A stretch of DNA of 64,000 nucleotides from Lingula anatina (Eukaryota > Animalia > Brachiopoda), in contig CM120640.1 in assembly GCA_051362555.1 (NCBI GenBank), positions 57,576,788-57,640,787 on the forward strand, read 5' to 3'. Position numbers and translations under genes: made by a program. The notes beneath the pieces are model-generated. The model had not been told where the DNA came from and searched no databases. It saw only the letters and a list, made by a program, of their open reading frames with translations. Below, in pieces: positions 9,475-55,400 of the stretch (the first letter of the stretch is position 1; every line of letters starts with the position of its first letter).

Positions 9475-9554
<80 letters not shown>

Positions 9555-10932
9555 TAAAGCAAAACATTTAAATCTTCTTTACTATAATATGGTTCAAAGA
9601 TTATTTTTTTGCTAATTGTCTGTCCATTTCACTGCGAGTTGACTTATTTGACACAATTGTTCATAAAGGATATAAAATACTGTATGTTCTAAGCGAAGCA
9701 TTCATGTATGCCGACATTGTAGACATGGAAATATTATACCAGCATTATATGTTCTGATTTTATATAACGGCAGGAATACTGTCCCAGCAATTATTAATGA
9801 ACCACATTTCAGAGGAAACATTAAACCCTTAATTTCTCTGATGATTGTTATTTCCCTCCAGGATGAACAGTTAATTTCTCCGATAATTGTTATTTTCCTT
9901 CAGGATTCTCTGGGTGAAATCCTGGTGTCCCTGTCGTATCTCCCTTTGGCAGAGAGAATCACAGTCACAATCATTAAAGCAATAAATCTTCTATCACCTG
10001 CAGTAGATGTCAAATACCCAAGTAAGAATTTAAACAGGGCGATAATTCTATTTTCGAAAATATTAGTTAATTCTAAATGATTAGGAAATTCGGGGGGGGG
10101 GGGGGGGGGTATTACAGAAGTCATTAAATATTAGATTTAGCCGGTATTGGAGGAAACGTCTCTCATGGCATTTCGAAAATCGGCAGTGCATACAATTATA
10201 AAGGGCATTACAAATTCTATCAGGCTGCGAAACTCACGTGGATACGGAAACCCACATCCACGCGTGCTTTGAAATATTCATATATTGATGTCGAAAATAC
10301 ATTTTACTCGGTAATATTTAGAATTATTATCATAACAAGCCATCGTGACAAGATTACCGCTACTAGTCACACAGCCTTTTTAGTAGTTAGTAGTATTCAA
10401 TATCCCACTCGTTAAATTTCATTGGAAAGGCATGTCGGGAAATTATTTTACCTGCAATATGACTGGCCTGAATTTTAATACATTATAAAACATATATGTA
10501 TATACCTGTATGTCTCAATTAAAAAAAAAACGTAATGAAAACCACAAATACAGACAATTATTTATTATGAAATAAAAATCCTGTTGATATGTAATATGAC
10601 GCCAACAATTTATTTCAGATGTCTACACGAAAGTTGTTATGGTCCACGACGGAAAAGCCTTGCAAAAACGAAGAACTGCCACTCACGGAGGAACGACGGA
10701 GCCGGTTTTTAACGAGGCCTTGTCATTTGACGCACCGGCAGAGAAGATGGAGAACCTTACCTTCGCTGTGACTGTCATGCATGCCATGTCGTTACAAGGG
10801 AGCAATGAGTTTGACAAAGTAATAGGTAAAGCTTGGCTTGGGAGAGACTTTAGTGGAGAAGCTCAAGACCACTGGTTTGAAGTTATCAGAAATCCAAGAA
10901 AACCAATAGCTAAATGGTATAGGTTGATGTGA
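7056..10932 (+). CDS. Synaptotagmin-like protein (N-terminal TM, Cys cluster, tandem C2A/C2B), ~408 aa, probably atypical/Ca2+-independent
   Basis: Exons 7056-7215, 7960-8078, 8937-9452, 9904-10021, 10619-10932 join in frame at GT-AG sites. TM VAIIGGCAGFLLLVFLCMVC followed by a Cys-rich segment. C2A: LSFTLSYY..KLVINITEARNLPPKDASGVSD. C2B: LGEILVSLSYLPLAERITVTIIKAINL..EPVFNEALSF..HWFEVIRNPRKPIAKWYRL. The true start codon is uncertain. Confidence 0.85.
9476..9552. repeat. (TA)n microsatellite
   Basis: Uninterrupted TA run. Similar runs at ~36932-36966 and ~48063-48117. Confidence 0.95.
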
Positions 10933-16100: not shown

Positions 16101-19100
16101 TTTCATACCAGTGCTTGTTCCAGACATGGATCACAGAGAGGCTAAAACTCCATTGTTTATAAAGAGGGAAAAAACTTCAACAAAGAAAGATCAGGCACTG
16201 GGTTGTAATCTTCTGGAAATATGGCTATGAACCTGAATTTGGCAGATGTGTTGGGGAGCTCCTGGCCCTCTTTCTATCAGGGGTCAGGGACAATGAAAAC
16301 AAGCAACAAATCTGAATGAAGTGCTCCGCTGCAGTTGTTTTTCCACCACACTTCTGTTACGCAGCAGTCTGGCACCACCCAGCTTTTTGTGCATGGTAGG
16401 TAGACTGTAGGATCACTTTTTGCAATTAAAATTATAACCACTATTAGGATGAATAATTAAAATACTTATCTTTAGCACTTTAGATCATTAAATTAATTAA
16501 ATTAAATGGAGACTTTCAATGGTTTTAATCATTAAATTCCTTTCCTTAAATTATCATTGCTTTTATTCTTCTTTCTTGCTGTCTGCAATATATTGAAAAA
16601 AATACTTTTTCAATGTGAAACAGTGTAAGTTTATTAAATGTTACCCCTAAAAAATCGGCAAAGAATTAATCTTTCGTCAGTTGCTCATGCAAAATGATAA
16701 ATATATTATTTATATTATTTTCATCTCTCAAGGACTTTACCAAGATGCACCTGAACACTTTCACCTGCCTGTTTCTATTGGTACAACTGTTCCAAAGTAG
16801 GCACACAGCTAGACTGAACACAACAAAGCCCAGAGGTGACAACTCGACCAAACAGCAATGTCAACTGGATCTGAAGATTCCAGATTACAACAAACTGTGT
16901 CCAGATCACAGGAAGCAGATGCATCGTCACAATGTCCTTCTTACTAAACTCATTAAGGCACAAGAAGCTTTTATGTCTGAAATGAGTGTCTTAATCCAAC
17001 AAGTCAATGAGAAAAATATACAAGATGAGCAGGATCTGCAAGATGATGATAAATTGAACAAAGACCAAGGAGACAGTGCAAATCAACTAGAATCAACCCC
17101 GGTAGAAAAAAATGGGGGAATTCTTGTGGCTACTCTCGAGGTGAATGAGGTAAAAAATCATGAAAAACAAACTGAGCAATTAACAATGCGCCTTGAATAC
17201 CTGACCAAACAAATGAACAAGCAGAATGAAGTCCTTAACCAGATGATTCTAGAGAGATCTGAGTATAAGATGAACCTGGAAAATATGAAGATGCAGATGT
17301 TTGATGCCTTGCGTGACTTCAAGAGCCTAGAGACCAAGGTGGACACCATGCAGTCACATATGACTTTTCAGTACAGACCACAAGTTGACGTTGCTCCTCT
17401 CACCGAGTTCCATCAGACTATTTACCTGGGTAAGTGACATACACATAAATGAATCAAACAAACACGGACATTTCCAATAACTTTAGTCCTTTTTTTTTTT
17501 TTTTTTGAAAATTAACCTGTTACAACAACATTTACAATAATGTATTTTATGAAAGCAATGAGATTTTAAGATGAATTTTGCAGATTTTCACAGACAAGGG
17601 AATTAGAATACATAAAAACTTGTTAAGAAACATTTTTTAATCCAAATTTCATGATGGTAAATGTGAAATGCCATTTAAAAAGCATTAAGAAACAAACAGA
17701 AAATTTAGCATTTATGACTTTTGAATGTTTTGGAATGGCACTTTATATTACCATGATAAATCTCAGATGAAAACGGACACTTTAGACAGATATTTGTTAA
17801 CTATTTTGTACAGAGATTCTTCAAATCCTTCATTCTTACAAGTAAGTTTTGTTTATAGATGAACAGTATGCCCTTCCAGTAGCAGATCCAGGCTCTGTGG
17901 TCTTCGAGTGCACATTTGAAAAAGACCTATGTGGCTGTGCTCAGGATACAGATGATGACTTTGAGTGGACAAGGCACAGCAAAGAAACAACTACAAGAAT
18001 GACAGGGCCATCACATGACCACACAACTAGAGGAATGGGTATGTGGGGTTCCCTGGTATCTAAGAGCTAGACATTAGGTGCTAAAACCTCATACGCTGTT
18101 AACCAGATTTCATTTTCCCAAATTTGGGCAATCAGTTGCCTTGAATATTTTTTCTTAGCAAAAAGTCAACTAAAAGAAAAACTTAAATTCTTAGACCATA
18201 TTTACATACTTTCTCAATATTGTCATATTTCTTTCCAAATAATAATAAACTCTCATCATGGTGAAAGGGCCACTCCATGGAATTTTCCCACCAAAATTAA
18301 CTTTCTTGTGTGAAAACAAGGCAATGCGCGTGACAAATGATGCTGTTACTTTGACTGACCACTCATAAAAAACTAAAGTATCAAATTAAAAATGGAATAA
18401 AACATCGAATCCAAGTGCAGGGATGGGTCAAGCAATAATTCACGAGTAAGGGGAATTGTTCTATGCCCCAGGAAAATTAATTTTCGCAGGAAAATTCTAT
18501 GGAGTGGACCTTTAAAACAAAGAGATGTAGTCATCAGTAACAATGTAAAAATTACAAAATTTTCCTATCAAAATGCAAATCTTTTTCCAAGGCTATTACA
18601 TGTACATTGAGACATCTCCCCCACTGAAGCCTGGGGATAAAGCCCGCCTTACAACCCCTCCTATGGCCATGAGTAAAGATGGCTACTGTGTCCAGTTTTA
18701 CTACCACATGTTTGGCTATTCAACTGGGTCTCTCAGTGTATATGTCAACACAGGGAAAGACGGAAGAATGAGAAAGACTCCCGTCTGGACAAGAACAGGT
18801 ATATCAAAGTCAAATTATATCAAAATTTTGGTAAAATGTCTAATTGCGTCAATTAACCAGGCACACAAAAGTCATATTGGCATCAGACAATCCTGCAAAT
18901 GTGCAGGCAACTAAAATTTTATGATATTATGTATCTTGAAAACCAAAAATCATAGCAGATTCTTTCATTACTCAAACATAAAGACAATTTGAATTGGCTT
19001 AACATGAGAATTGACTATCATAGTTTAAGAAGAAAAGCAAATCACTGCAGTAAGAAATTATTCCAACACTTGCCACTTATTTATTTCTTTAAAAAAGCAG

Positions 19101-24525: not shown

Positions 24526-25496
24526 TGTTGTCTTTTAATTATCAATCCCGCAGTAAATGGATGACATAGAAAAAAAATACACATTCTTGATCTATCGATT
24601 GCCATGCTATTATCGTTAATTCATTTTAAGAAAATAGATAAGGTATTTTTGTCTTGTTGTACAGTGGATTGTATTTTATTTCAAGAAACAATCAATAAAT
24701 ATAGAACAGACAGGGCCAATCAAATTCACGAATTACTTTAAGTGCTTAGAAAACAGATACTGTTGAAAATGAATCGGAGTGCCTGAGCAGAACAAGCATA
24801 TAATTAGAAAGCAAAGTAGGTAATGATAGGTAATAAGTAGGTAATGATAGATGTTAGTGATATGTACTTTGTTGTTACAGTTTGCTTATTAAGGTGACGG
24901 ACACGTTTGAGAAGTATGGTAAACTGTGATAGCCCCCGTGAACTGGATTAGTAGATGTCAGAAATATGCCCTCGATTGACGATGTTCACCATTAGTAGAG
25001 AGCTTTCGCAACTGCACGTTTAGGCGACCGACTACATTTAGCTATCCGTAACCGTAAAGTGACCAAAGTTTATTTTTTCGTGATTTCGCAGAAAGACCCG
25101 GTTAGCCTTTACGGATAGTCGAATTGTATAGTAGGCTGATACATGTTTCCCGTGCTGTAAGCAGAGACGTTAAATGAGGTCATACGCCATTGGACAGGTT
25201 AGGTAATTTTTGCTGCACGCGGGTGATGAACGAATAGGCATGATAAACATTACAGGGGTAAACACACTTTAGACCACGGTGCAAGTGAAGAACAAAAGAC
25301 TCGGACGTGGTGTAACTTGCATAACCGCACGTCTCGCATGAATGCGTTATAACCTGTTTATGGACCGTGGTCAAAATAAGATAGACCCCTCGTCAGCGGG
25401 GTTATGTGACATCCACTCGTGCTACGCACTCATTTATGCCACATAACCCTCGCTGACTCAGGGTCTATCTATTACTAAAACTACACACGCCTCAAC

Positions 25497-26561
25497 ATGG
25501 ACCTCCTGCAAATGGCAGTTCAAGGCGATGATGAGGAGTTGATATACGCTCTCCTTCGCGATAGACCTCAGAAAAGGCTGATAACCTACATGTTGTATGA
25601 CCCTGAATGGCCAAGTTTTAATTTGGGTACCCTTACTAACGATCAGTGTTTGAACGACTTTCGCTTTGAAAAGGAAGATGTATATCGCTTGGTAACGTTA
25701 TTAGGACTTCCTGACATGATAACTGTAACTAACAGATGCAGGGGCAGCGGACTTGATGCCTTATGTATGGTTTTAAAGAGATTTTCGCACCCAAATCGAC
25801 TGAGTGATTTGGAAAGATTTTTTGGTCGACTTGCATCGACCTTATCCGTGATCATCAATCACACTGTTGGTCTACTCTATGACAGTCATCATCATCATCG
25901 TTTGGATACACTGGATAATCCGTGGTTGGGTCCTGCACTACTTCAAATTTATGCTAATAAAATACATGAGAAGGGTGCGCCACTGCAGAACTGCATAGGT
26001 TTTGTGGATGGCACGGTTCGTCCTATAAGCAGGCCAACACGCAATCAACGTGTATGTTACAATGGACACAAGCGCATTCACACATTGAAATTTCAATCAG
26101 TGGTGATACCTAGCGGGTTGATTGCACATCTTTATGGTCCTCTAGAAGGGCGAAGGCATGATTGTGCACTGCTTCGTTTGAGTGGACTGATGGAACAAAT
26201 GGAAGCTAGAGAGCTTACTGATAGGAATGGTCTACCATACGCAATTTATGGAGATCCGGCTTACCCCATTAGAAGGTATCTGTTGAGTCCCTTCAGAGGA
26301 GCAAATTTGAGTGCCGAAGAAGAAGAATTCAATAGGAGAATGTCATCTGTCTGGGAATGCGTCGAGTGGGAGTTTGGAAACTTATTGCGAAACTTTGCCT
26401 TCCTGGGCTTTCGAAAGAATTTAAAAGTTCTGTTGTCTCCTGTAGCTAAGTACTACTTGGTAGGTGATCTTCTGGTTAACTGCCATACCTGTGTGTATGG
26501 CAATCAGACCAGTCGGTACTTTCAACTAGATCCTCCCACCTTGGAGAACTATTTAGCATGA
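25497..26561 (+). CDS. Harbinger (HARBI1-like) DDE transposase, 354 aa
   Basis: Intronless ORF with GFVDGT, YNGHKRIHTLKFQ, GRRHD, IYGDPAY and VEWEFG (DDE triad present). Confidence 0.9.
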   Translation: MDLLQMAVQGDDEELIYALLRDRPQKRLITYMLYDPEWPSFNLGTLTNDQCLNDFRFEKEDVYRLVTLLGLPDMITVTNRCRGSGLDALCMVLKRFSHPNRLSDLERFFGRLASTLSVIINHTVGLLYDSHHHHRLDTLDNPWLGPALLQIYANKIHEKGAPLQNCIGFVDGTVRPISRPTRNQRVCYNGHKRIHTLKFQSVVIPSGLIAHLYGPLEGRRHDCALLRLSGLMEQMEARELTDRNGLPYAIYGDPAYPIRRYLLSPFRGANLSAEEEEFNRRMSSVWECVEWEFGNLLRNFAFLGFRKNLKVLLSPVAKYYLVGDLLVNCHTCVYGNQTSRYFQLDPPTLENYLA

Positions 26562-28326: not shown

Positions 28327-31300
28327 ATGGTGCAAAACCAACACGTCTTCCACAGCATATGTCTTCCACTGCTTCTTACAGCATCATGCATGGGTCAAAC
28401 ACTGCAGTTCCCAAACCAAATCATCATAGGAGGGGTGCTGGGTACCCAAGAATCCATGGATTTGTTTCACCAATGTATAGAAGAAGCCAACCAACCTGGG
28501 GTTCTCCCAGGCAATATCACAGTAAAAGGAGCAGCCATGCTGATGGATGAAAACCCAATCAGAGCTGCACGAGATATTTGTCTTAAGATGATATATCAGC
28601 AGGTGTATGTGGTGTTGGTCAGCCATCCACACCCTAATGCCAAGTCCCCGCTGTCTGTCTCATACACTTGTAAATTCTATAACATCCCTGTCATTGGAGT
28701 TGGAGGAAACTTGAGAGATAGTATTTTCTCAGAAAAGGTATACATGCAGATTGATCTCATTTTTATTTACAGTTTTAATATCATTTTGATTTAGATTAGG
28801 CTTTTATAAATGAGGAAGTAAAGGGAGTTATGTTGCTGGTTTTAAACCTCAATTAAAGGGATAATAACTCTTCGTTTTGGCCAAAAAATGAATTTTCCTG
28901 GAGTAAACAACAATTTTCCTGTACTTACCAATGGTTAATGAATCCATTTTTACATTCAAAGTTAGTCCCTGTTTTTTTTCTAAAAAGTTTGGTTTTTTGT
29001 TAAAATCTCTCAAGAGATTATAACAGAGTATAGCCATCAATGGAGGTCACGTGGTCTGAAGACAAGCTCAGATATCAGAATAATAGCTTTAACTGCTGTT
29101 TTTGTCTTGAAACAATATATTACATTTCTGAGTTATTCACAATGTTTTTATTGTGAAATATAGACCTCATACGAAGAGTTATTATCCCTTTAACTTTGTG
29201 TTTATACAACTGATTTAATAACCAGGCTTAATATAAGGTTGATCTGATAAGTTAAAAGGCACCCAAGAAGTACAGTTGTATTTTGACTGTCATTATTTGT
29301 TATAATGTATCTGTGTATGAATCGCAATTGAAGTTGCATGGAGTTATATTTTCTGTGCATTAAACAAAAATACCAAACCATGCAGATATTTTTCTTTCTT
29401 AGTTTTCAGTCAGACTTTTTCTATTCCAGAGCGTCCATGCCACTTTCCTGAGGACAGTTACCTCAATCTCCCACCAGGCCGACCTGTGGCTAGAACTACT
29501 TAAGTTCTATAAGTGGAAGAAAACTGTTTTCATCACTGAGCTCACTCAGGAAGGCAGGAACATTCTCAGCAGATTTCAGAACCAGGCCAAAAGCACAATA
29601 GAGGTTGGTTATCGTGTCATTTAAGTTAAACATTATGCCTTAACTCATTTGTTGGTATTATTTTTGGTTAGTTTGAACTATTGTAATGCAAGGTATTACT
29701 GTAGATAGATTTAGATTTATTTACTTAACATCTTTTTTCCAGCTTGAAAAGACTATATTGTTAAAACCTGGACTGAGGAGCTATTCAGATGATTTATTAG
29801 AGCTGGAAAAGGCAAGAGCCAGAGTGGTGTTGATGTTTGTTTCGTAAGTAATGAATACTTAAGCTATGTTTTAATGAAAAATACTTGGAACAGGATTTCA
29901 TGGTTGGCATTGCTCTTTCAGTTGATGAGATTCTGGCAACATAAAAAAGTCATGGAAGAAGTGTGCATGTATGATCTGTACTAAGTACTGGATCAAGGCT
30001 TGATATAAATTCTTTTCAGGCACTTGCCCTGTGAGTCAAGTAGGTCTGAAAATCTGCTTGCCCCACTCTAAATCAAAAAGGCCAAGTAATGCCATTAAGT
30101 ACATTGAGCCCTGCTGGAGTGGCACTGTTGTTATATAGTACTTTGTTAATTTTAGCCAAAGTGTTGCTGAGGTGGTGTACAGGGATGCTGTACACTTGAA
30201 CCTGACTGGCCCAGGATTTGTGTGGATTGTCACAGAACAGGCTTTGACTGTCCAGAATATACCCCAAGGTACAGAAGCAATGTGAAAGATTCTGTCTTCT
30301 TGTCAATTTTGTTTGCGCCTTGTAATATATCAGAATCATACAAGGAATGTTTTAAATTCATTTAGACTGTAAAATATACTCATTAAAGTATTGCATTTAA
30401 AGGATTCACTGAAACTGTCAGTTTATTTAAGTTACTACAAATTAGACCCCCACCCCACCCCACATTTTTGGTCTTTGGCATATGCTCATTATTCTAAATA
30501 TTAATAAAAACATTTTTGTGAATTTTTGTTAATTATCTGCTGACATTTTAGTACTTTGGCATTTTTGTTTTAATTTTACTACTAAAAAAATGTATTTCAA
30601 TCTTGGTTGTGACAGCTCGTGCTCATGATACAGTCTTACCAAAAAATAATAAAAATAATAGCTAATAAAAAATAATAATAGTAAAATAGTTTTGTTTGTT
30701 GTAATGATGGTGAATAAATTGGATGTATTGCCCCTAAATAAATGAGAAAAACTGTTATGCTATGTGATCCAACATGTTTTTGTCTTATAATCTCTAGAAC
30801 TGAGGTAGGTCATGGGGTGAGTTGAGTTTGCCAAAATGTCAGTTATGGCCTAATGCCAATAAATTATAGATATAATTATTATTTCTTCTCATTTATTCAG
30901 GTATTTTAGGTTTCCAGTTGCGTTTTGGCATGAATGAGTCTCTTCACATCCAGGATGCTATGCATGTTGTGGTGAAGGCCATCAATACTATGTACAATAA
31001 AGTGAACCTCACTGAGGCCCCTAATCGTTGTATAAGCCATACTGAAGATGAAGTAGGATCTTGGGATAGTGGCCAAGTCATGTTTAAGTAAGAAAATGTT
31101 TTTGTTTTCTCTTGGGGCAGAATATTTAGATTTATTTACACAGTTGACCAGTCTTGGCAAATGTTTTGCAAGTCATATTTGTAATCAAAATAATTTTCAA
31201 AATGAAATTTGACTTTCAAGAGATGTAAGAAGTCTAGTTCCTTATACACTTTTATAAAATGCTTCCATAAACAGTTCCTTAACATTTAACTTTTTATGTA

Positions 31301-34300
31301 CAGTTTTGTAAGTAAAAAATATTGAAAAAAACAATGCATTTGCAGTTGTCTGTAAACCATGTTGATGTCATTTAAAAAGCAAAGCTATTTTTAGTGCCCT
31401 AAAGGAAGTTGAGCTTGCTGATGGGAAGACAGGAAAGGTAAAATTTGATGAGGTTGGAGATCGTGACAGTCCTGTGTATGACTTGGTCAATGTACAAGAA
31501 GGCAAGCTAGTCACAGTGGGCACTTATGAAGGCAAGGTACTGCATTATGGACAAAGGTCTTGCCTTATGTATCCTGCCATATTCTAATTTAGCTAAAAAA
31601 GTTGAAACATTTGACTACTTATTGTTTAAATTGCTGTGATTCAATTTAAAAAAATGACATGGCTTAAATAACCCATTTATTTGGTTATAATATATTTTAT
31701 CCTGGAGTGAACACAGAATCCTTGTAATTAAGTGTATTGATGTGTTATGGTATTTCTCTGGTCTATTTACTTTTTTGATATGAACATTTTAGTGAAAATA
31801 TAGATTTGTAAACACATTTGATCATTGTAATTTATTTAGCTCAAACTAACACATTTTCCTACTTTGAAGATGCAGACCAAAAAGCTGAATGTTAGAGGTC
31901 CAATTCTCTGGCCAGGTGGACAAATGACCACACCTCTGGGAGAGAATATTGAGACACATTTGAAGGTAAGAAATGAGGCAATGGTAACTTTTTTAAAACT
32001 CGCATCAACCAAAAATTTATGTACTAATAAAATTGTTGGTCATAAAACCCTCCAAAAAAGGTTAAACTTCTCATCATTTGTTAAACCCCATTCTTAAGAA
32101 AGTTACCCTGACATTTTATGCTTCATATTCAGTATGAAAAGTTTCCTTATAAAATGTGACATGTAATCCCCAAATACAGTGAAACTGGAACATATTGAAG
32201 TCCTTTGCCAACTTCATTGATGGTGATCTTATGTTCATATTTGTATGACTGGTTTTAGGTGGTGACCATTGAAGAGGTCCCTTTTGTATTCTCACGGGTC
32301 ATCCAACCAGGAGAACAGTGCAAGACCATGCCAAGCCTGGAAGATGGAATAAGAGAAATCTACTGTCCACATATTAATGTTACAACTGGTAATCTTGAAA
32401 TGTGTTATCAGTCTGTCATTATTCCTCTCTCTTATTTTCAATTTTGATCCCTGTGTGGAAGTTACATTGCTGGTAATAACTGAATAAAGAAACAGAAGTC
32501 CTTCTTATTTTATTAATTATCTTAATATAAGCAAAATAGAATGATAGTAAAACATGAGAAAAAAATACGGAAAAATGCTGCTGTCAGAACTGAAAATCAC
32601 TCATCATGTGTAATAGTTTTTGTTTCTGTTATTGATCATTAAGCTCGCGTCTGCTAGCAATTTAAATTTTCTTTTATATCTTCACAGATCATTGTTCCGC
32701 TGACATGGAATGATTTGCCATTTTCAGGTGTGAAGACTCATAAATGTTGCAAGGGATACTGTATAGATTTGCTATTCAAGCTTGGTACCAAACTAAACTT
32801 CACTTACGATGTCCATCTTGTTGGAGATGGCAAGTTTGGTGTTTTGGAAAAGGTAGTTTGTTTATTCTCTTTATTTACAACTATATTTTTTATAAAGTGA
32901 ACTAGAAAAGAAAATAGAAACCATAAATTTTAATGAATGTAATTTTGTTGGTAAGATATGATGATGCCAAAAAGATTCAATTAAATAAAATTGAAGGTAG
33001 ATATTTTAGGCTGTATTCCCAGAGCTTTTAGATCGATCTTTCCCCGTGGGGAGTCTCACTAGATTACTGTCAGATAATCCGGCTTAAATGTCTGTCCCAC
33101 CTACTACAAGCTGTAAGGGGGTAATTAACTTTCGTGTCCACTCGGCTGACAGCTATTTAACGTGAACCCCCAGGGAGTTAGGTCGATCTAAAGTAGATCG
33201 ATCTAATCTCTGGAAATGGGGTCTTAGATATTTAACAAATTTTGTGTCACAGCAAGAGACATTCTGTGGTATTCATTGAACACTTAATTTGTTAGAACTG
33301 TCTTTTACTCCTAGCTGAACAAGGCTGAGATAAATGTAAAATTGAATCAGATTCAGTGCAGGCATTTCAGTGTAAGCATGACTCTAGAAAATAACTAAGG
33401 TATGTTGTATTTTAGAACAATAGGACAGCCCAAGAGTGGAATGGAATGATGGGTGAGCTTTTGAAGAAAAAGGCAGATCTCATTGTGGCTCCTTTAACTA
33501 TAACTCCTGACAGGTCTCTGGCTGTGAAGTTCTCAAAACCTTTCAAATACCAGGGGCTAACAGTTTTGATGAAGAGGGTGAGTCATATATTTTATGTTCA
33601 GCTGCTTAATTAACTGTATGTCACAATCACCTTTGTCTGTTAGTGTTACTGGAGGGCGAGTTTGGAGGTGTTGAAACTTCTGGTTATTGCAAAAACTTTT
33701 AATCGAAGTTTTAGTTTTGCTTCATATGTTCTACACTTACTAGGCTCCAATCACGATGACTTTCTTGTAAATATGATCACTAGTTTCTTGGCAAACTATA
33801 CACAGTAGTGATTAATTTGAACCATCTCTTTAAGTGGAATCTAATAAATATGTATATATTTTTTTTAATTCAGGAAAGAGAGCCCAGTAGCATTGCGGGT
33901 TTGTGTGCAAATGATATTATGCAGGATGCGTGGATCCTTGTTAAAATATCTCTTGTATCTTCAGGGTCACAAAGACTCCAACCTAGGCTCCTTCCTCCAG
34001 CCTTTCCAACCACCTCTGTGGATTCTAGTTCTGCTGTCAGTCCATGTGGTGGCCTTGGTGCTGTATCTGCTGGACAGATTCAGTCCATTTGGTCACTACA
34101 AGCTGGCAAAGTCCTCAGATGAGTCAGAGGAGCACCCCCTTGACCTGTCTACAGCCATATGGTTTGCTTGGGGAGTGCTGTTAAGCAGTGGCATAGGGGA
34201 AGGTGAGAGCGCAAAGGGAAATTGATCATTTCAGTGCAGATGAATTATGATTGTAAGAAAATGATAAAGTATTTGTGTGATATTTTTCTTGGAGTAATTA

Positions 34301-36931
34301 AATGAAATTGTTTATGATTCGACCATTTCTTCCAATGTTTTATTTGATATATAATTGTGCATCAGGTAAAGAGAGACTTCTGTGACAATTGAAAAAAAGT
34401 AGGCTTACTGGGCCTGCAAGTTTTGAAAGCTGCTGGCACTGACAAAAAGTTTTTTTTTTTAACAGGAAGCTGTTAGACTCGGGCCAGGATCATGGATGAT
34501 TTCTTAGATTTTTGTGTACAGATATATTTGGTTTTATTTCATATGTATTGTCTGCCTCTGATAAATCTATTCATACTAACAACATAACCTTCTTTTTTTG
34601 TTCCAGGCACCCCTAGAAGTTTTAGTGCCAGGGTGGTAGGGATGGTATGGGCAGGTTTTGCAATGATTATCATTGCTTCTTATACTGCTAACCTGGCTGC
34701 TTTCCTTGTGCTAGACAGACCACCCTCTGCAGTCTCTGGTATAGATGACAGACGGGTAAGTTGAGGCTTTGATTCTTAAGATATATACTTATTCTGAAGA
34801 CTGGTATAATACCAAATTACCAAAAAAAAGAAGCGTAGATAAAAAATCTATTATTTGTGATTGATCGATTGGTCACTATTTCCACGATTTATTTAATTTA
34901 CCTTATTGTAACTGATCCCCTCTTTCAGTTGAGAAACCCTACAGATGAGTTCATCTTTAATACTGTCAAAGATTCCTCTGTAGAGGACTACTTCAAGCGG
35001 CGTGTAGAACTGTCTACCATGCACCGGACAATGGGGGACAATCCAATACAATACGAAACTCCTGATGAAGCCATTAAAGCAGTGATAGAAGGGTACTTAC
35101 CTTCTATTTTTTAAGTTTTGACAATCTTTCATAATTTGATTGAAGACCAGCATTCAAAAATAAAATAAGTAATATATTAACACTTCATTTCTTGGTTTAT
35201 TGTAGCAAATGAAATTATTACTATTGTAAAAAGAAATAAGTTTTTCTTTTTGAGCTGTAATAAGTGAGGAGAATGGGATTTTTGTGCCATATTGTGACAT
35301 GGCCTAGATCCTTAAATCAGAACTTGAGACCTGGCACAAACCATCCACACATCAGGTAGCAGTTCAACTCTATGCCCACTGTAATTTCGTCATGAGATCC
35401 ATAACATTCTGCTATTTTACATTGCAGGAAACAGTTAGATGCCTTTATTTGGGAATCCACTCGTCTGGAGTATGAAGCTGCCAGGCGCTGTGATCTGGTC
35501 ACAGCTGCGGAGATGTTTGGCAAGGAGAGACTTGGAATAGCAGTGCGCCATGGAAGTCCTTATGCTGAGTCCATTAATCTGCAGGTGCTGGGATTTCATG
35601 AAGGTAAGCATATTCCCAGATACCTATATCCATTGACTCTGTCAGTGTCTAATTAATGTTGATGTAATGTTTTTTTTTTTTTTCTTTTTTAAGTATTAAT
35701 TTGGTTTTCTCATCAATAATTTTGATGATTTTGATGATTCTAATTATTTTGTTAAACATGTCTAATTATTTTGTTAAACATGTTAAACATATCTCGTTTG
35801 CAGAAGGTGACATGGAAAGTTTAGATGGCAAATGGATTCTGAAGAGTAACATAAAATGCAATGAAATCAATTCATCTCCTGCTACTCTTGGGCTGACTAA
35901 CATGGCAGGTGGGTAGCATGATGCAGGATGTTCTCTATCTGAACCAGGTGCATCTCTGGTAATATTATTTCATTTGTTCTACACAAACCATTGATAAATT
36001 TTGCTTATGTCAGTCTTGCAAATACAGGACAAGGAAACTGAAGTATAAAATCTGTTTTTGCCCCATAATCTGAAAAACGTTTTTGAGAATTATGCTGTAC
36101 TTCTGCCAGGCGGATGGGCCCACTAATGCTGAACCTATAACATCTTGATTCATGGTGGTAAGGGACTTTCATAGCTGTTTCTGATATAAATTGTTGCACT
36201 TGACTATATTCCAGGGGTGTTCATGTTGGTAGCTGGAGGTATACTGTCAGGAATATTCATAGTATTTGTAGAGATCACCTACCACCGCCATGTGTCAGCC
36301 AGGCAGAAGGAAATGGAGCTGGCACGTCATGCTGCAGCAAGATGGAGGGGAAATATTGAGGTGAGTGGTCCTCACATGAATTTTCATTGATGAAGTATAT
36401 TTGAATTTCCTCTTTCTCAGTACATAAGTTAAAATATAACAGTAAATATCACTAAAGCTGAAAGGAGGTTAAGAGGCAGCCAGTATTGTGGTTGATGTAT
36501 ATAAAATATTATTTCAACTTATTTCAATTTGAAAATTTTCAAGTCTTATATGCAAATAGGAAAGTAACTACTTAACAAAGATTTTTCAGTATTCATGAAG
36601 TATTGTTAACAAGACGTTCTACTATATTTTCTTAGATTTGAGAATAATGGCAAGAAAAGTGCCTAATACTAATATTACCTTTCACCTATTTAGTGAACTG
36701 TAATGTGATTAATATATATTTAAACCTTGACTTTTGATTGATCTCTTTTTTTTTTTTTTTGTTTCTCATTTTATGAGAATGCATGAGGTGGCGATTTCTA
36801 CTTGCATGTTCTTTTATCTTTTATATGCTGTTGCTTATTTGTTAACTATATTTAGTGTTATAGAAAGTTATTTGAAAAATTAACTTAGCCTTGCGTACAT
36901 GCTTTCAAAACAAATAATACATACATGGAGG

Positions 36932-36968
<37 letters not shown>

Positions 36969-38526
36969 ACCGCCATGTTGATTTGATCTTGGTGTGGATC
37001 ATTTGATGGTAATTGAAGTAAAATTGATAGTTTTCAGTTGACTTTCTATAATGTGCCTTGTAAGGTGTGTGTTCTGTTTTCATACAGTATGTGTGCAAAG
37101 TGACAGCAAAAATGATGACATGCTGTTGACAATACCAAATTGACTAATTGTTTTGAAGCTGTTGTCAGTTTTATTTTACATGCAGAAAATAATGACACAA
37201 TTTTTAAACTGTTAACCACTACTAACGTATAATCTTAATACCATATCACTAAAACCCCAATGTTAAATCCCAGTCTATTTCACAATCCACAGCAGGCAAG
37301 TGTCTTCATGTCAGTGAATTGATCAAGGCATTTGTTGAGGTTTTCCAAGCTTCATTCTTGCACAAAGTTCTCCCAGCTACCCTCTTGCAAGGTGGAAGCC
37401 AGTTCACCATTCTTCATAGGTTTTGTGAAATTACAGGCTTCTGAGATTTTGTGATTAGAAGTGGGTGAGTTTGTTTAAGTGCATGATGCATAAAAAAGTT
37501 CTTCAAAAGGCACATTTTACCACAGCCTGATTAAGGAGTTAAGAATGGCTTGTGGTAGCTTTGAAGCCTGAGACATTGTTTATTGTTGATGAATTTGTCT
37601 GATGTGATTGGATGATTAAGCCTTACGATTTGGTTTCACTTGTTCTTTTATATTTAGAGGGGTCACGCTTGCTGAATTCTACCCATAACTTAGAACTTCA
37701 GTAATTATATATCCATTTTTATCCATGATTGATGTTTGCTAACTTAAATGAATTATATCAAAACAGTAGTAAGGGTCGGGATCACTACTTAGAACTCTTA
37801 TCATATTAGAAAAGGAAGACCTTACGGGCAAGCTGGGCAGTGCTGAGGAAAGACAAAGCAGATGATTTGGATGAGGTAGTTATGTTTTCAGTGCACTCAA
37901 TAATGGTGAAATAGTACAACAACCACATGTGTATGAATACTATCTCCAATTCAAAGAATACTCTTGGATTTTTCTTTCATTTTATAAGTTTATGCACTTA
38001 TATTTGTCCTGATATTTAAATTGGATTGTTATGTGGCATGGTGTTTTATTCCTTTCTGTGTCCCTAAAAGGATGTCCCTGGTGACATTGTCTATTACATA
38101 AATGGTTTATTTATATGTTGTTGCTGTTGTCATACTTTTGATGTTGTAAAAATTGGTTTGTATTAACTTGTGGGCTGCTTTGATTCTACCTTTATCATTT
38201 TGATGTTTTTTATTTAATATTAAAAGAAAGAAATTGAGACAACTTTAACATTAACAAAAATGTTGTGGATAATTATTCAGAAGCGACGCATGCAGCGCAG
38301 TAACCAGCTTGAGCATGAGCAACTTCAGCAACTGCACAACGGAGCAGATGGCAAACTTGTCAATGGAAGAGGTGCCCTGCACCGTGGTATAGAGGGCGCT
38401 GCACAAGCTGAACCAGTACCATACCCAACATACTCTGGTGGGGACTGGGAGCAAAGAGAGCCTGAATACACAGTTGCTGGTGCTGACAACAGAGATCACA
38501 GTGGTCAGAGAGTGGACATTGTATAA
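28327..38526 (+). CDS. GRIN1: NMDA receptor GluN1-type subunit, ~976 aa, divergent at pore and ligand residues
   Basis: 18 exons: 28327-28737, 29430-29603, 29743-29843, 30156-30268, 30901-31087, 31395-31536, 31870-31965, 32259-32388, 32728-32852, 33416-33577, 33965-34202, 34607-34755, 34929-35092, 35428-35603, 35804-35908, 36215-36360, 37810-37875, 38281-38526 (2931 nt, in frame). GluN1 hallmarks: [91 protein letters not shown]. Confidence 0.93.
28857..29189. mobile_element. Kolobok-like MITE, TTAA TSD
   Basis: TTAA|AGGGATAATAACTCTTCG...CGAAGAGTTATTATCCCT|TTAA, with a second copy at 53001-53331. Confidence 0.8.
33009..33223. mobile_element. Tourist/Harbinger-type MITE, TTA TSD
   Basis: Subterminal inverted TAGATCGATCT motifs and TTA on both sides. 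Second copy at ~49418-49636. Confidence 0.7.
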
Positions 38527-48120: not shown

Positions 48121-51100
48121 AAATTTTCATTAAATCCCACAGTCCTCTCTCAGCCAGGTAACAGTGTCATTTGATGTGTGGGGGGTGGCCCTGTCTTGCT
48201 GGAAACACTGTCCATCTCAATCTAAGACTCTGCTCCCCAGTGACTGCCAAACTTCCTCAGCACTGCCACAGTGACATCAGAAGAGACTGATCAGCAGTGA
48301 ATGTGGGCAATCCATTCACAGGACTTGAACTCCCAGATTTTTTTTTTTTTTTTTTTTTTTTGGGGGGGGGGGAGCACCCTGTTCATGTGATTAAATTTTT
48401 TATAAAGTAATAAAGAAGCTTACCAAGGATTTACTGGGCGATAAGCCCACAGAACAAACACAGACTCAAATATCTGAGATGCATCTTTTTAGGGAATTAC
48501 TTGGTGAATGCCGTTCAGTACATGGTACTGAACTTGTCTTATCTAACTTATTTTGTACATGTATCCTGATTGAATTGTGTCACATATAGCCACACCTCTA
48601 TCTTATTATTCAGTGTTCTTAGAATTCGCTACTGTTTGATAACAGGCTGCAACGTGCAACCTTTTCTGCCCTTTAAAAAAGCCATAGTTTAATTTAAAAA
48701 AATAGATGGTAGAATAACAATGTAGCGTTATTATTATTCACAAAATAGTTGGTGATACCACTTCATGCATTAGCAATATTTTGATTTATTTAAGTGATCT
48801 ATCTCATGATGCATTTATGAGAAGTTGGAGAGTAAGAGTACAGGTGCACTGGTATCTTATCTACTTTGTCAGTTTATATAATAAGTTGAATTGAAGGGTG
48901 GATTATCAGCTAACTGACAAACAGAAATAACGCAAGCCTGCGTAATACTATGGAGGTAATAATACCACTGTCAAGGGGGAATTTATTTTCAGAGCTATTG
49001 TTATTTGACACAACTGAATGGATATATCAATTAAGCTTTAAAAAATCTATTTAATTTTTTTTTTATTTTCACAATATAGAAAAATAGTAACAATGTATAA
49101 TAACTTTGTGAATTAAAAATGAAAATTCTCAGACACAAGCCTAAATTTTTCCGTACCGTTAGCTTACGGCCATCTGGTCGAAGGCCTTCATCAGGCTGAC
49201 GTGAGTAGTTGTTCACACTCACTGACCGCTAGGTGGTATAGCGGCCAGGACCCTCTTATAAATGTCAGGTAGATCAACCCCCCCCCCCCCCCCGTCCCTA
49301 TTCATGGGTGGCTGGTATCGGCTGATGTTGATAGCCTATCGTATTTTTCGCGGGATGTCGGATGATTCAGATTCAAGAATCTTAGTTGAATTCCAATCGA
49401 TACTGTGGCCGGTGTCATTTCCATAGATTTTTAGATCGATCTATCCCTGTGGGGAGTCTCACTAGATTACTGTCAGCTTGGCCGGCTTAAGCGTCTGTCC
49501 CGCCTACTAAAACCTGTAAGGGGGTAATTAACTATGGTGCCCGCTCGGCTGACTGCAATTTAGCGTGAACCCCCAGGGAGTTAGGTCGATCTAAAACTTA
49601 ATCCTTAGATCGATCTAAAGCTCTGGGAAAGCACCCTATATAGGTGTACATGTTCAGAAATGGCAGAGCTGGTATTGCCTACAATCACTGATTTCCTGTG
49701 TTCACTCACCCTGATCTTCAACTGTCTACCTGTCTCACCAATGTAAAAGGAATTACAGTCATGGCAATTGATCCTGTATATTGTCCCACAACGGTGATCT
49801 TGGGGGGTTTTGTCCTTTGGTGCCACTAGGTGTTGTTTCAATGTGCACTGAGGTCTAAAAGCTGTATTTTTTTTAAAGCAGATATCATACCACCAAGTGT
49901 AACAAAATCAGTAATATTTCCAAATTTTTGTGTAATTTGATTAAAGTTAAGATATTCTCCATTTTTGTCAATCAAATCATTTATATAATTGATGCCTGAT
50001 TCCTGCCAAATTTTATTCGTCATAGTTCTTTTATTTATCAAGATTCTATCATTTAACCTTATGCATTCCTTCAAAAATTAATCTCTGGTACAGACACTTT
50101 TATGATCTAGCAGATTTTATCAGGGATCAATAACATCTTTCCAAAATGAGTTTCTTAAATTACATCTTATAGATATCAGTTTTCCCTGACCAATTTCGGC
50201 CCATTGTAAATTTGGTATTCATTGAGTCTAAAAAGGATGTCTTCCATTTTGAATCTTTTTTAAAATATACATCTTCTTAGCCAGGTTAGGTTTAGTGCAT
50301 AAATGTGATACTTAATGTCAGTACTCTGTCTTAATTCCTCCATTTCTATAATTTGAATAATCTTTTCCCTTTTAACTTCATCAATTTTACCATTCCATAA
50401 TCTAAAACATAGTTCTTTAATAAAATCTGTGTTCGGGTTAGGAAGTGAAGTAAAAAGATGAGTAAGGTAATTAATATCAAAGGTTTTAGAACTACATTCC
50501 TACCTAATACTGTCAGGGGTCTCACCTCTTTACTTCTTTGAATTTATCTTTATAATTCTTTTCTATCATTTCCTGTAAGTTGATTGAAAACTCAACTCCT
50601 AAAATGTCCAAAGTCTTTGAATTCCAATCTAATTTAAAATCTTTACAAAGAACGGTGTTAGAATTTTTCATATTTCCTATCCAAATCATTTTTGTTTTTT
50701 GTGAATTTACAGTTAAACCAGACATGCTAGCGAAGTTTTTTAGAGTTTGGAGCACACAGCATGTAAAATTTTCAGTTCCATCTAAAAATATTGTCATATC
50801 ATCAGCATACTGAGATATTAAAAAATTTTTATTATGCATTTTAATGCCATTTATATGGTCATTATTTCTTAACATACTAAAAAGAATTTCAGCACATAAT
50901 ATGAATAGGTATGGTGAGAGGGGATCACCTTGGCGACAGCCTTGATATACTTTTAAGAGGGAAGAAGAATGTCCATTCACTAATATACATGACTGTGAAT
51001 CTTTCAAAAATATTTTTACCTATTTAATCATTGATTTTCCAAAACCAAAAAAAGTCAAGTGTCTTTAAGATAAAGTCCCATTCCAAAGAGTCAAATGCTT

Positions 51101-52448
51101 TCAAGAAATTTTTTTGCATTACAAGTCCTGTTTTTTGGAAAGACTCACAGTGTTCTTTAATGTTGTAAACAACCGTTGTATTTTCCCCTATAAATCTTTC
51201 TGACATAAAGCCATTCTGGCCTTTGTTGATCAGTGTGTAGAACTTTTTAATTCTATTTGCAATCGACCCGGATGCCAATTTATAGACTATATTCATAAGG
51301 GAGATTAACCTTAAATTTTGTAAAAAAATCTTTTGGCTTTCCTTATTTGGGGATCAGGGTTATTACTCCTTGAGCGAGTGAAATGGACAATTCATTGGTT
51401 TTGTATGCTTCGTTTGTGGAATGGAGAATAAAGGAATGTATATCTATCCAAAAAAGCTTTAAACATTCCACTGTGAAGCCGTCCATGCTCAGGCTTTTAT
51501 CATTTTTCATATTTTTTTAATGTCTGAAGTAATTCATCATCTGTGATTTTCCCTTCAAGCATGTTGGCTGTAGTAGTATTCATCTAAAGCATTTCGTAGG
51601 ACCTTAACAACTCTTTCAGATTAACATCTTCTGTCCCCTTTTTTGTAAAAAGATTTTCATAGAATTTTTTTTTGTTTTGTTTCTTGCATAATATCATTCT
51701 GATTTGTGGCCAAGTCACCATTATCTTTGTGTATTTTATTTATAGTTTTGTTAACGAAATTTCTATTTTCCATTCAATTTTACCAAAAAATATTTAGTTG
51801 CTTTTTTCCCCCTCTTCAATCCATCTAATTTTTGACCTTATTATTATACCCTGTATCTTTTTTTTCTTATTTGTTTTAAATCATCATTTAATGTTCTTAT
51901 TTTTTGTATCAGTTCTTGCCTAGTTACATCACGCAAATTTTCTAGTATGTTTTGCAAATTACCTATTTGATCTTAATAGGAAAAAAAAATCTATTTAATT
52001 TATTTGACTGACAATTTAGTCTACCTGATAACGCCGATAAGTTCCTCATGTAGACATCAGCTAATCTACTGATAATACAGATGGAGCTACGTTGTCAACT
52101 AGACTAAATTGTACATAACAGTTTTTTTTTTTTTTTTTTGAGCCTTGAACCTTCAGACTATTGAACTTTCAGACTATTGCTACGGCCCCAGCAAGTGTAC
52201 ACAAGTATATAGGTCTTGTCTGGGACTTAATGTCATAAAATGTATTTCTTTAAAATGAAACCAAATTGATAAGATTTGAACTACTCAACAAATATACACA
52301 GATTACTCATGCAGCCCCGAGGTGACACTTGAAATTATACAACATTTCTTCAGTTTATGATTCCTCGGAGCTGCAGGTTATTCAGTTGCATACTTGTCAA
52401 CATTGAAAATTGTCAGATAAGATTTCCTATTCCACCCTATATCTCCTA

Positions 52449-52480
<32 letters not shown>

Positions 52481-55400
52481 ATAACACCCTTTATCACCTA
52501 CAAAAATAACAACAACAACAATTATAACATTGTAAGAAATATCTCATCAGATTCACCTGGTCCATCCATGCCAGCAAATTTAACTTCCTAAAATTTCTAG
52601 CTTTTGATGACAGGTATGAGAGATTTTTTCTATTCATTGATACATGTATTAGCTAGTTAAGGCATCAGAGTTACTAATGACAAAATAGGTAACAGAATGA
52701 GTAACAAAGTAAATCCTGGATGTTAACAGTTTTACCTCTCATCATCCCACTGAATTTTTGCAATTGCCAGGGGCCATGTTGATGGCAATTTTCCTGAATG
52801 GTATGACCTTGGAGGAAACAAGTTGGCTGACCAGAGCTATGAGAGACTCTGGGGAGGTGTTGTCCTGGCCATTAGAGTGGAAAGGTTGTGTTGTAGACAA
52901 GCACAGTACTGGGGGGGTCGGGGACAAGGTTAGTTTGCCCCTGGCACCTGCATTGGCCGCTTGTGGGATGAAGGTAGGATTTTTATGTATTTGAAATTAA
53001 AGGGATGACTACTGTTCATTTTGGCCAAAAAACTAATTTCCTAGGAATGAGCAATGATTATCCTTTACTTACCAATAATAAACAAGTCCACTCTGACATT
53101 TGAAGTCATTTTTTTCCTAAAAAGTATGTTTTTTTTTGTAATAGTCTCTTAAGAAATTATTACAGAGGTATAGCCATTATTAAGGTTCACAAGGTCTAAT
53201 GGCAAGTACATATTCCAGAATAATTGCAATAATTGCTGTTTTAATGGTAAAATGGAAATAATATTACTGTGAGTTATTTACTATGTATTTTTTGTGTAAT
53301 ATGAATCTCATACAAACATTTTTTTATCCCTTTAATAACATTTAATTTTTCAGTCCTCATTTAAGTTGATTCCATTAAAATTGCACATACATAATGGAAC
53401 ATTTTATTTATTGGTAAGACATTTTATACAGTTTACTACTCTCCATTCATTTCCAGGTTCCCATGATTTCAGGACGTGGGCTGGGTCACACAGGGGGGAC
53501 TTTAGATAAGCTGGAGTCAATACCAGGATTCCAGGTAATGATTGCATCTTCTGACATGCTTGAGATCCTGGAAAAGGTGGGCTGTTGCATTGTGGGACAG
53601 ACCAATACTCTGGTGCCCTCTGACCGTATTATGTACGCTACCAGAGATGTCACCAGTACTGTGGACAGTGTCCCTCTGATTGTAGGTAATGTTTTTTTTG
53701 TCATAAGCCTATTGCATGTCACAGAAATAGTGTGTTATTTTTTTTTTTTTGAAAAATTTGTCTTTAATTATTAGATGTTCATTTTCCCCCTATCCACAGT
53801 AAATAAGCAACCTTAACAGTTTTTGAGGAGTATATATGGCTGGCATCAAATTGTAGGTGGTGTAAAAATTGTTGACTCTTTTAATATTATTTTATTTCTT
53901 TTATTTTTTTACAGAGAACTGAAATTTTTTATCAAACATGTTTTTAAAATTAATGCATGTTTATGTTACATCATCTTATTTCATGCATTAAGGTTCAATA
54001 GTTTCCAAGAAAGCAGCAGAAGGTCTAGATGCACTGGTTTTAGACATAAAAGTTGGAAAAGGATCATACACCAAAAATGTTGAAGAAGGTCGTAAATTGG
54101 GTGGATTAATGGTAACTATAAGTGGTTAACAAGTATACATATCTGTGCATGGTACATGTGTCCAGGTCTTATCTAACATAGTATAATTTTTATGTAATTT
54201 GGGGGAATTATGCCAGCTTACTTTCAGTAAAAATATATCAGTTAAGTACAATTTAGTCTTGTTGACAATGTACATGTACTTGTAGCTCCACCTGTATTAT
54301 CAGTAGATTGGCTGATGTCTACGTGAGGTACTTATCAGTGTTGACTTAAAACCAGACTGTTTCCTAACGTATTAAAAAATGGAAATGATGATGGATGACA
54401 AATCTCATGAAGGATTCTAAGTTGTTTATTCATTTTCAATAGCTGCACAATGCTGTGAGAATTGTAATATATTCCTTCAGAAAAAAAAAGAAAAAAAAGT
54501 CATATTTTTATCCCCCCTCCCAAAAAAAAAACTGTTATGTTATTTTATGGAAATAATTGCAGCTTACTGCACTTTCAGTAAAAATATATATCAATTAAGT
54601 ACAATTTAGTCTAGTTGACAATGTAGCTCCACCTGTATTATCAGTAGACCGGCTGATGTCTACGTGAGGTACCAGACTTGTTTCCTAACATATTAATATA
54701 GTGGAAATGTTCTAATAGATCACATTATGTGATAGTGTACAATTATAGACCTTGATAATAGTTGTTTTGCAGATCTTAAAAAGTGATTATTTTGACTGAC
54801 TCACACACAAGGTTGATACTTCTTTTCTGCAAAACAATATATTGAAGTTTACAGAGTTGTTTTAAAATATTATGTAATTAACACCTGAAAATCTTCCTAG
54901 ATGAAAAATTGCAACAACACTCATCTGAAGTTGTTGCTGTCTGATTGATATGTTTCCTTTCTTCTGCTTGGTCAAATAATTGGCAATTATGTTGTTGAGG
55001 ACAATTTTATGGATGGTGTCATTGTCAATGTTATATTTAATATCAAACCTCAAATTCACAAATAGAAAGTCATAAACAGTGCTAATGGTGATTAAGAAAT
55101 GTCATTGCTGAAAAAAATGCATATGCCCAACTGGTGAACCATGTTTCACTTGACAGGTGTCCAGCTGTGAGAGCATGGGCATTAAGACAGTTGCCTTGCT
55201 TACCAACATGGATAGTCCACTGGGGAAGACCATTGGAAACAGTCTTGAAGTACAGGAAGCACTGGACTGTCTTCGTGGACAGGGTCCTGGAGACTTGAAA
55301 GAACTGGTAGTAAACTTGGGTGAGTTTTCATTTCAAAGTCATCAGTGATTTTAATGACTATCATTAATGTCTCTTTCCATTCCTAAACTTTGTACCTTAA

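Follow-up and report, generated by a model that had tools for sequence, protein, structure and literature searches.

In rat GluN1, residue D732 occupies the ligand amine-binding position, and one report (10.1101/2023.08.03.551817) states that its replacement by glutamate lowers glycine potency 1,000–10,000-fold, a strong drop such as the first-pass annotation of this DNA had named, and that position 732 is coupled to Q536. In the same source only Leu or Phe at 732 gave glycine-independent receptors, Glu merely lowering potency, and the Drosophila and Aplysia receptors are reported as single-ligand activated; the D732 survey of Seljeset et al. given there included Lingula, with Asp and Glu pooled as conserved. 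A 2026 survey (PMC13648236) identifies the alpha-F motif as the best predictor of ligand, with SSV or SAV in glycine-binding NMDA receptor subunits, and includes a glycine-selective receptor with Glu at the position of 732. For the pore, a preprint on human GluN1-N616S (PMC13370611) reports that about 97% of the open time is spent in subconductance and that Ca2+ permeability is undetectable. Other sources describe F754 and R755 as GluN1–GluN2A interface residues allosterically coupled to glycine binding, report that invertebrate Delta and Epsilon ionotropic glutamate receptors (iGluRs) switched to GABA, alanine or aspartate via few changes, and record the expression of Lingula AMPA and kainate receptors in oocytes. 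The Lingula GluN1 sequence itself has already been published in an alignment (PMC5225553 supplement). The literature searched, lying mostly outside subscription journals, yielded no remark on the Lingula residues described below or on the decapod E732 paralogue; the alignment figures of Seljeset et al. may show the residue.

The window, which is the whole 64-kb stretch of Lingula anatina (lamp shell) DNA analysed here, holds one iGluR gene and no other. This GluN1 gene spans 28327–38526 on the plus strand and is composed of 18 coding exons encoding 976 residues (exons 1–6, 28327–28737, 29430–29603, 29743–29843, 30156–30268, 30901–31087 and 31395–31536; exons 7–12, 31870–31965, 32259–32388, 32728–32852, 33416–33577, 33965–34202 and 34607–34755; exons 13–18, 34929–35092, 35428–35603, 35804–35908, 36215–36360, 37810–37875 and 38281–38526; all on the plus strand). 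The 976-residue frame is open and 17 of 17 introns are bounded by GT..AG; exon 17 is placed according to the RefSeq model and is absent from the RNA joints listed. The segment at 35441–35545 translates on the plus strand as [12 protein letters not shown]...[12 protein letters not shown], exactly as first read, and sits within exon 14 (35428–35603, plus strand), which belongs to the S2 lobe, carries E732 and the KER triplet, and has RNA joints on both flanks. The segment aligns without gaps to GluN1 727–781 of solved structures, all 60 of the PDB sequence matches listed (the best 60 of 104) are GluN1, and the intron position 3′ of exon 14 is common to 65 of the 76 animal GluN1 loci that carry the motif in full.

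The window protein differs from L. anatina XP_013416499.1 (P0001) at four positions, apart from a duplicated block in the latter, and D732E, R755K/S756E/G757R, F758L and N616S (rat numbering) are present in that second assembly too. A Pfam scan of XP_013416499.1 returns ATD, LBD and TMD together with the C0 calmodulin-binding domain, the domain set of GluN1, and in a Foldseek search its fold matches NMDA receptor chains, the AlphaFold and Foldseek runs on this protein confirming the fold only. In the RefSeq protein the duplicated block is a second copy of a 109-residue part of S1 (residues 548–656) and corresponds to window exons near 32688–32852 and 33416–33577. It is probably an assembly duplication, because the window has one copy and residues 510–604 are unfolded in the AlphaFold model of XP_013416499.1.

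Lingula GluN1 shares with rat, human and spiralian GluN1 the domain set, [10 protein letters not shown]523, T518, SSV, W731, Q536 and the intron after exon 14. Specifically, it retains F484, P516, T518, R523, Q536, S687-S688-V689 and W731 (rat numbering); upper-lobe P516, T518 and R523 and hinge Q536 are encoded at 33491–33553, the glycine-type alpha-F motif S-S-V (its meaning taken from PMC13648236) at 34974–34982, and W731 at 35450–35452, all on the plus strand. It differs from canonical GluN1 in E732, K755-E756-R757, S616 and 25 departures at conserved columns. At 732, Asp, which is typical of GluN1 but not universal, is replaced by Glu (35453–35455, plus strand), with no read difference listed. 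In the hinge strand, K755 (35522–35524), E756 (35525–35527) and R757 (35528–35530) together stand at 35522–35530 on the plus strand in place of the near-invariant R-S-G, in reads free of indels or differences, and are followed by L758 (rat F758; 35531–35533, plus strand), an ordinary spiralian state. At the M2 N-site (rat N616; 34184–34186, plus strand), Lingula has Ser, unchanged in reads, versus Asn in 235 of 241 pooled rows.

The first-pass annotation treated the SG(F/Y)-to-ERL change as remodelling of the ligand pocket. R755 faces the GluN1–GluN2 interface, and KER is better termed a hinge/interface change than a pocket change, because F754 and R755 are described as GluN1–GluN2A interface residues. 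In the AlphaFold model the strand is unbroken across KERL and the S2 fold is kept, with pLDDT of about 85–95 (in blocks of 10). GluA2 K730 and Y732, which we take to match positions 756 and 758, presumably contact the Glu equivalent to 732, and coupling of 756–757 to E732 is therefore plausible.

Glu at the 732 position is a likeness to AMPA/kainate subunits; these carry G-S-T in alpha-F and Leu or Met before the Glu, whereas Lingula carries S-S-V and Trp. The hallmarks of glutamate-type iGluRs, Gly first in the alpha-F GST and a small residue at 731, are thus absent, and Glu732 does not predict the ligand, since a glycine-selective receptor has Glu there (PMC13648236) and Lingula keeps SSV and Trp731. 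The constitutively active type, represented by Trichoplax AKDF19383 and GluN1 D732L/F, has a large hydrophobic residue at 732; Lingula has Glu. The rat D732 mutant series includes the identical D732E change, and its coupling partner Q536 is kept in Lingula, but rat D732E is engineered on the rat background, whereas Lingula E732 is natural and accompanied by hinge changes.

E732, S616, K755, E756 and R757 are each found in 0 of the 119 best full-length homologues, which are the top of 1234 matches by score and are biased to canonical sequences. The GluN1 with unusual D732E, SG(F/Y)-to-ER and N-site changes that had been proposed is real. In contrast, Leu758 (44 of 119, mostly molluscs), Ala688 (72 of 119), Gly754 (83 of 119) and Glu405 (55 of 119) are common among these homologues and therefore represent ordinary invertebrate variation. 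The loss of the F758 aromatic is accordingly not special, and the RSG(F/Y) given as canonical was incomplete. R523, S688 and W731 are indeed kept, as claimed, although the retention of S688 says little, this residue being Ala in 72 of the 119.

Furthermore, of the 328 rows that cover these positions in a pooled set of 396 proteins, none has E756 or R757 and three have K755; position 757 holds a small residue (Gly, Ser or Ala) in 325 of them; and S616 occurs in 1 of 241, the sole case being Adineta vaga. E732 occurs in 16 of 329 rows, of which eight were added by a cluster look-up of E732 proteins, one is misaligned and one is AMPA/kainate-type. An index-free comparison of the exon query with 1.84 billion representatives retrieved XP_013416499.1 at 98% and all others at 61% or less. 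The 148 other representatives comprise 136 with Asp732, seven with Glu, one with His and four uncovered at that position, and KERL is in none of them. Six of the seven Glu732 representatives are GluN1-like (five of a decapod paralogue and one of Gordionus), and the seventh is AMPA/kainate-type. Neither the protein searches nor the representative search identified another brachiopod or phoronid GluN1. P0199, an unnamed canonical spiralian GluN1 with no named cluster member, falls in the same tree polytomy as the window protein and is no closer to it (64% identity, versus 67% for Lineus and 66% for Capitella).

The decapod E732 sequences form a second, long-branch GluN1 (P0173, P0185, P0269, P0273–P0275 and P0183), whose clusters name Homarus, Penaeus, Palaemon, Portunus and Chionoecetes. 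In Homarus and Penaeus this second copy additionally carries His536, at the position to which rat 732 is coupled, and Penaeus vannamei has a canonical D732 copy too (P0079). Other odd GluN1s are those of Seison nebaliae (P0206/P0284/P0285; His732, Gly616 and Pro518), Gordionus (P0283; Glu732 and Met755) and Adineta vaga (P0196; Ser616). The decapod second paralogue and Gordionus GluN1 resemble Lingula in a natural E732 beside W731. However, decapods keep RSG and Gordionus has MSG, both keep N616 where it is covered, unlike Lingula, and they belong to separate clades. KER is evidently unnecessary with E732, because the decapod and Gordionus E732 proteins carry RSG or MSG hinges.

A quick IQ-TREE analysis of 41 GluN1 rows places the window protein among spiralian GluN1, the trees being built from GluN1 rows without a GluN2/3 outgroup, and its exact placement being unsure because its branch is long. 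The term 'undescribed receptor type' is therefore too strong. The terminal branch of the window protein is 1.03, versus a median of 0.25. Within arthropods, the E732 rows of decapods group as a clade of their own (SH-aLRT 100). Because the Lingula and decapod E732 rows lie in separate clades, the sequences indicate two or more independent origins of D732E, probably three. At columns conserved in at least 95% of sequences, Lingula departs at 25; among the 119 homologues the median is 1 and no sequence exceeds 19. These departures fall at 11 of 58 S2 columns versus 14 of 141 elsewhere, and the S2 enrichment is not significant (p = 0.10).

A single compensated +1/−1 frameshift was considered as a route from RSG to KER. 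The route is possible from just one Arg/Ser codon pair, and the required pair occurs in 0 of 80 loci, which were found by patterns containing D732 and RSG and were left out of the residue frequencies. The Ser756 codon is TCN in 51 and AGY in 7 (58 distinct Ser-bearing entries of 60), and by chance such a frameshift reaches 8% of triple replacements (12% when BLOSUM-weighted). The frameshift is unsupported.

RNA mapping covered six of the nine runs listed for the species label, at low depth (two reads in run X2). Among the joints listed, RNA is spliced across at least 12 of the modelled GluN1 introns, and in two stranded-looking runs the GluN1 reads are in sense orientation. The three study P3 runs differ from the window by divergence; across exons 11–15 they carry 13 fixed synonymous differences and one fixed replacement, which is the same Ser/Ala difference as in XP_013416499.1, and pN/pS is 0.024 (p = 7e-8, pS 6.7%); with polymorphic rows included, the counts are 19 synonymous and 3 replacement. 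Four read-difference rows whose loose ends match the Lingula kainate receptor were dropped. Elsewhere in the gene, 19 of the 25 further exonic differences listed are synonymous. Codons 616, 732 and 755–758 are free of listed differences and indels, at bin depths of about 4–25 (about 4–13 in three runs for the bin of the E732 codon). Lingula GluN1 is under purifying selection, the shallow divergence showing recent constraint only. An artefact, RNA-level reversal and decay are unsupported; neither artefact nor decay accounts for the gene, because the second assembly agrees, the reads are spliced and unchanged, and synonymous differences are in excess. The frame is unbroken, splicing occurs and pN/pS is far from neutral, which is not the profile of a pseudogene, and the decay that had been named as a ground for refutation fails for the same reasons.

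Two low-support replacements occur in run X8 only, Cys744 to Tyr at 35490 (4 of 27 reads, two starts) and Glu to Lys at 35055 (3 of 19 reads, two starts), and these reads may be PCR copies or rare alleles. Run X8 also joins 36360 to 37309 and 37927 to 38281, with additional letters in the interval (window 36360–38281), observations which hint at alternative C-terminal splicing. Two intronic repeats (28853–29193 and 33026–33224) attract thousands of RNA reads with unrelated flanks and are dispersed elements transcribed elsewhere. About 1.8 kb upstream of the GluN1 start, a 360-residue open frame (25479–26561, plus strand) contains a DDE_Tnp_4 domain and is presumably a Harbinger/PIF-like transposase. 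Neighbouring genes at 8790–10932, 18549–18914, 52713–53774 and 61823–62275 (plus strand) and at 50522–51353 (minus strand) encode tandem C2 (synaptotagmin-like), MAM, glycosyl-transferase-3 (thymidine phosphorylase-like) and Ig V-set exon features, and reverse-transcriptase-like fragments in the window were judged by eye.

Greer et al. 2017 list one Lingula Grin1, which is the window protein, and one Grin2, and no second Lingula-named protein occurs among the 120 best matches of the GluN1 protein searches. The GluN1 of the window is the only one found in Lingula across the window, the protein searches and Greer et al. 2017; the search for a second, canonical copy that had been suggested turned up none in these sources. 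In the published alignment (PMC5225553 supplement 3), Lingula Grin2 has M2 LFGAAV, without Asn at either N-site, and alpha-F GAT. A heteromer of Ser616 GluN1 and this Grin2 would, judging from the two sequences, have no pore Asn. The N-site change is identical to that of human GluN1-N616S; the human change is a disease-associated variant, whereas S616 is fixed in all of the Lingula data analysed, beside a GluN2 without N-site Asn.

We tentatively favour the reading that this intact, spliced, fast-evolving GluN1 provides a retuned small-amino-acid site in a calcium-poor GluN2 heteromer. The product would pair with GluN2 as a channel gated by glutamate, and a small neutral amino acid (glycine, D-serine or alanine) would likely still be required, with potency shifted and probably lower. 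The kept R523/T518/P516, SSV and Trp731 would still accommodate a small amino acid and keep glutamate out, while the longer Glu732 would alter the 'locking' of the lower lobe. The K755-E756-R757 hinge changes may have co-evolved with Glu732 and may partly offset it, and Ser616 with a partner GluN2 lacking the N-site Asn would cut Ca2+ permeability. Weaker glycine sensitivity and low calcium flow are, on these residues, likely. Several points count against a retuned site: E732 stands beside RSG or MSG hinges in decapods and Gordionus; mutant effects in rat and human may not transfer to a protein whose LBD and TMD are 56% identical; the departures are spread and S2 is not enriched, which fits general acceleration; and GluN2 N-sites commonly lack Asn among protostomes (insects have Gln, C. 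elegans has Ser and one more protostome row has Gly).

That spread of departures over S1, TMD and S2 also suits compensated drift, in which evolution is fast overall, the changes cancel out and glycine retains an ordinary potency. The remaining pocket residues are all kept, the predicted strand across KERL is continuous, and other long-branch GluN1s (rotifers, flatworms and nematodes) vary at 755–757. However, AlphaFold confidence is alignment-driven, Arg757 is radical at a position almost confined to small residues, and both 732 and 616, with their large measured effects, are changed; we consider compensated drift possible but doubtful. The charge cluster, unique in the pooled set, could instead mark a subunit in which E732, E756 and R757 hold the lobes active and glutamate alone gates the channel, in line with the reports of glycine-independent rat GluN1 with Leu or Phe at 732 and of single-ligand Drosophila and Aplysia receptors. 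The proposed salt bridge is a conjecture, though, the conservation of R523, T518, SSV and W731 is as expected if ligand is still bound, and Glu732 in rat, as reported there, lowered potency with no ligand-free activity, making such a subunit unlikely. Slightly less probable still is a site with a preference for some other small amino acid or amine (beta-alanine, taurine, GABA or D-alanine). The amine-binding residue is one carbon longer and the Delta and Epsilon iGluRs show ligand switches via few changes, but alpha-F SSV and Trp731 are glycine-type, which also makes glutamate itself unlikely. Taken together, the readings with no co-agonist or a different one, as the first-pass annotation suggested, are possible but doubtful. 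Finally, the long branch, the low read depth and the decapod precedent of E732 in a second copy beside a canonical one could suggest a decaying or spare paralogue, or a sequence artefact; given an intact frame, two agreeing assemblies, the pN/pS value and the single Grin1, this is very improbable.

The Lingula variant is less dramatic than proposed, as part of the motif is ordinary and glycine-type determinants remain. A bolder version of its history, which the sequences make conceivable but which we regard as doubtful, would be that the sole Lingula NMDA receptor dropped glycine co-agonism (using glutamate alone or another small ligand) and acquired a calcium-poor, Asn-free pore, with brachiopods, decapods and horsehair worms each arriving independently at D732E. 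If true, it would be a natural NMDA receptor without the hallmarks of coincidence detection. Few synaptic proteins are as conserved as GluN1, and the effects measured at positions 732 and 616 of mammalian receptors are large. Having fixed changes at both positions while under purifying selection, such a lineage serves as a natural test of two questions, namely whether an NMDA receptor needs co-agonism and calcium entry to function and which second-site changes allow D732E to be tolerated. The recurrence of E732 in the decapod paralogue offers an independent comparison.
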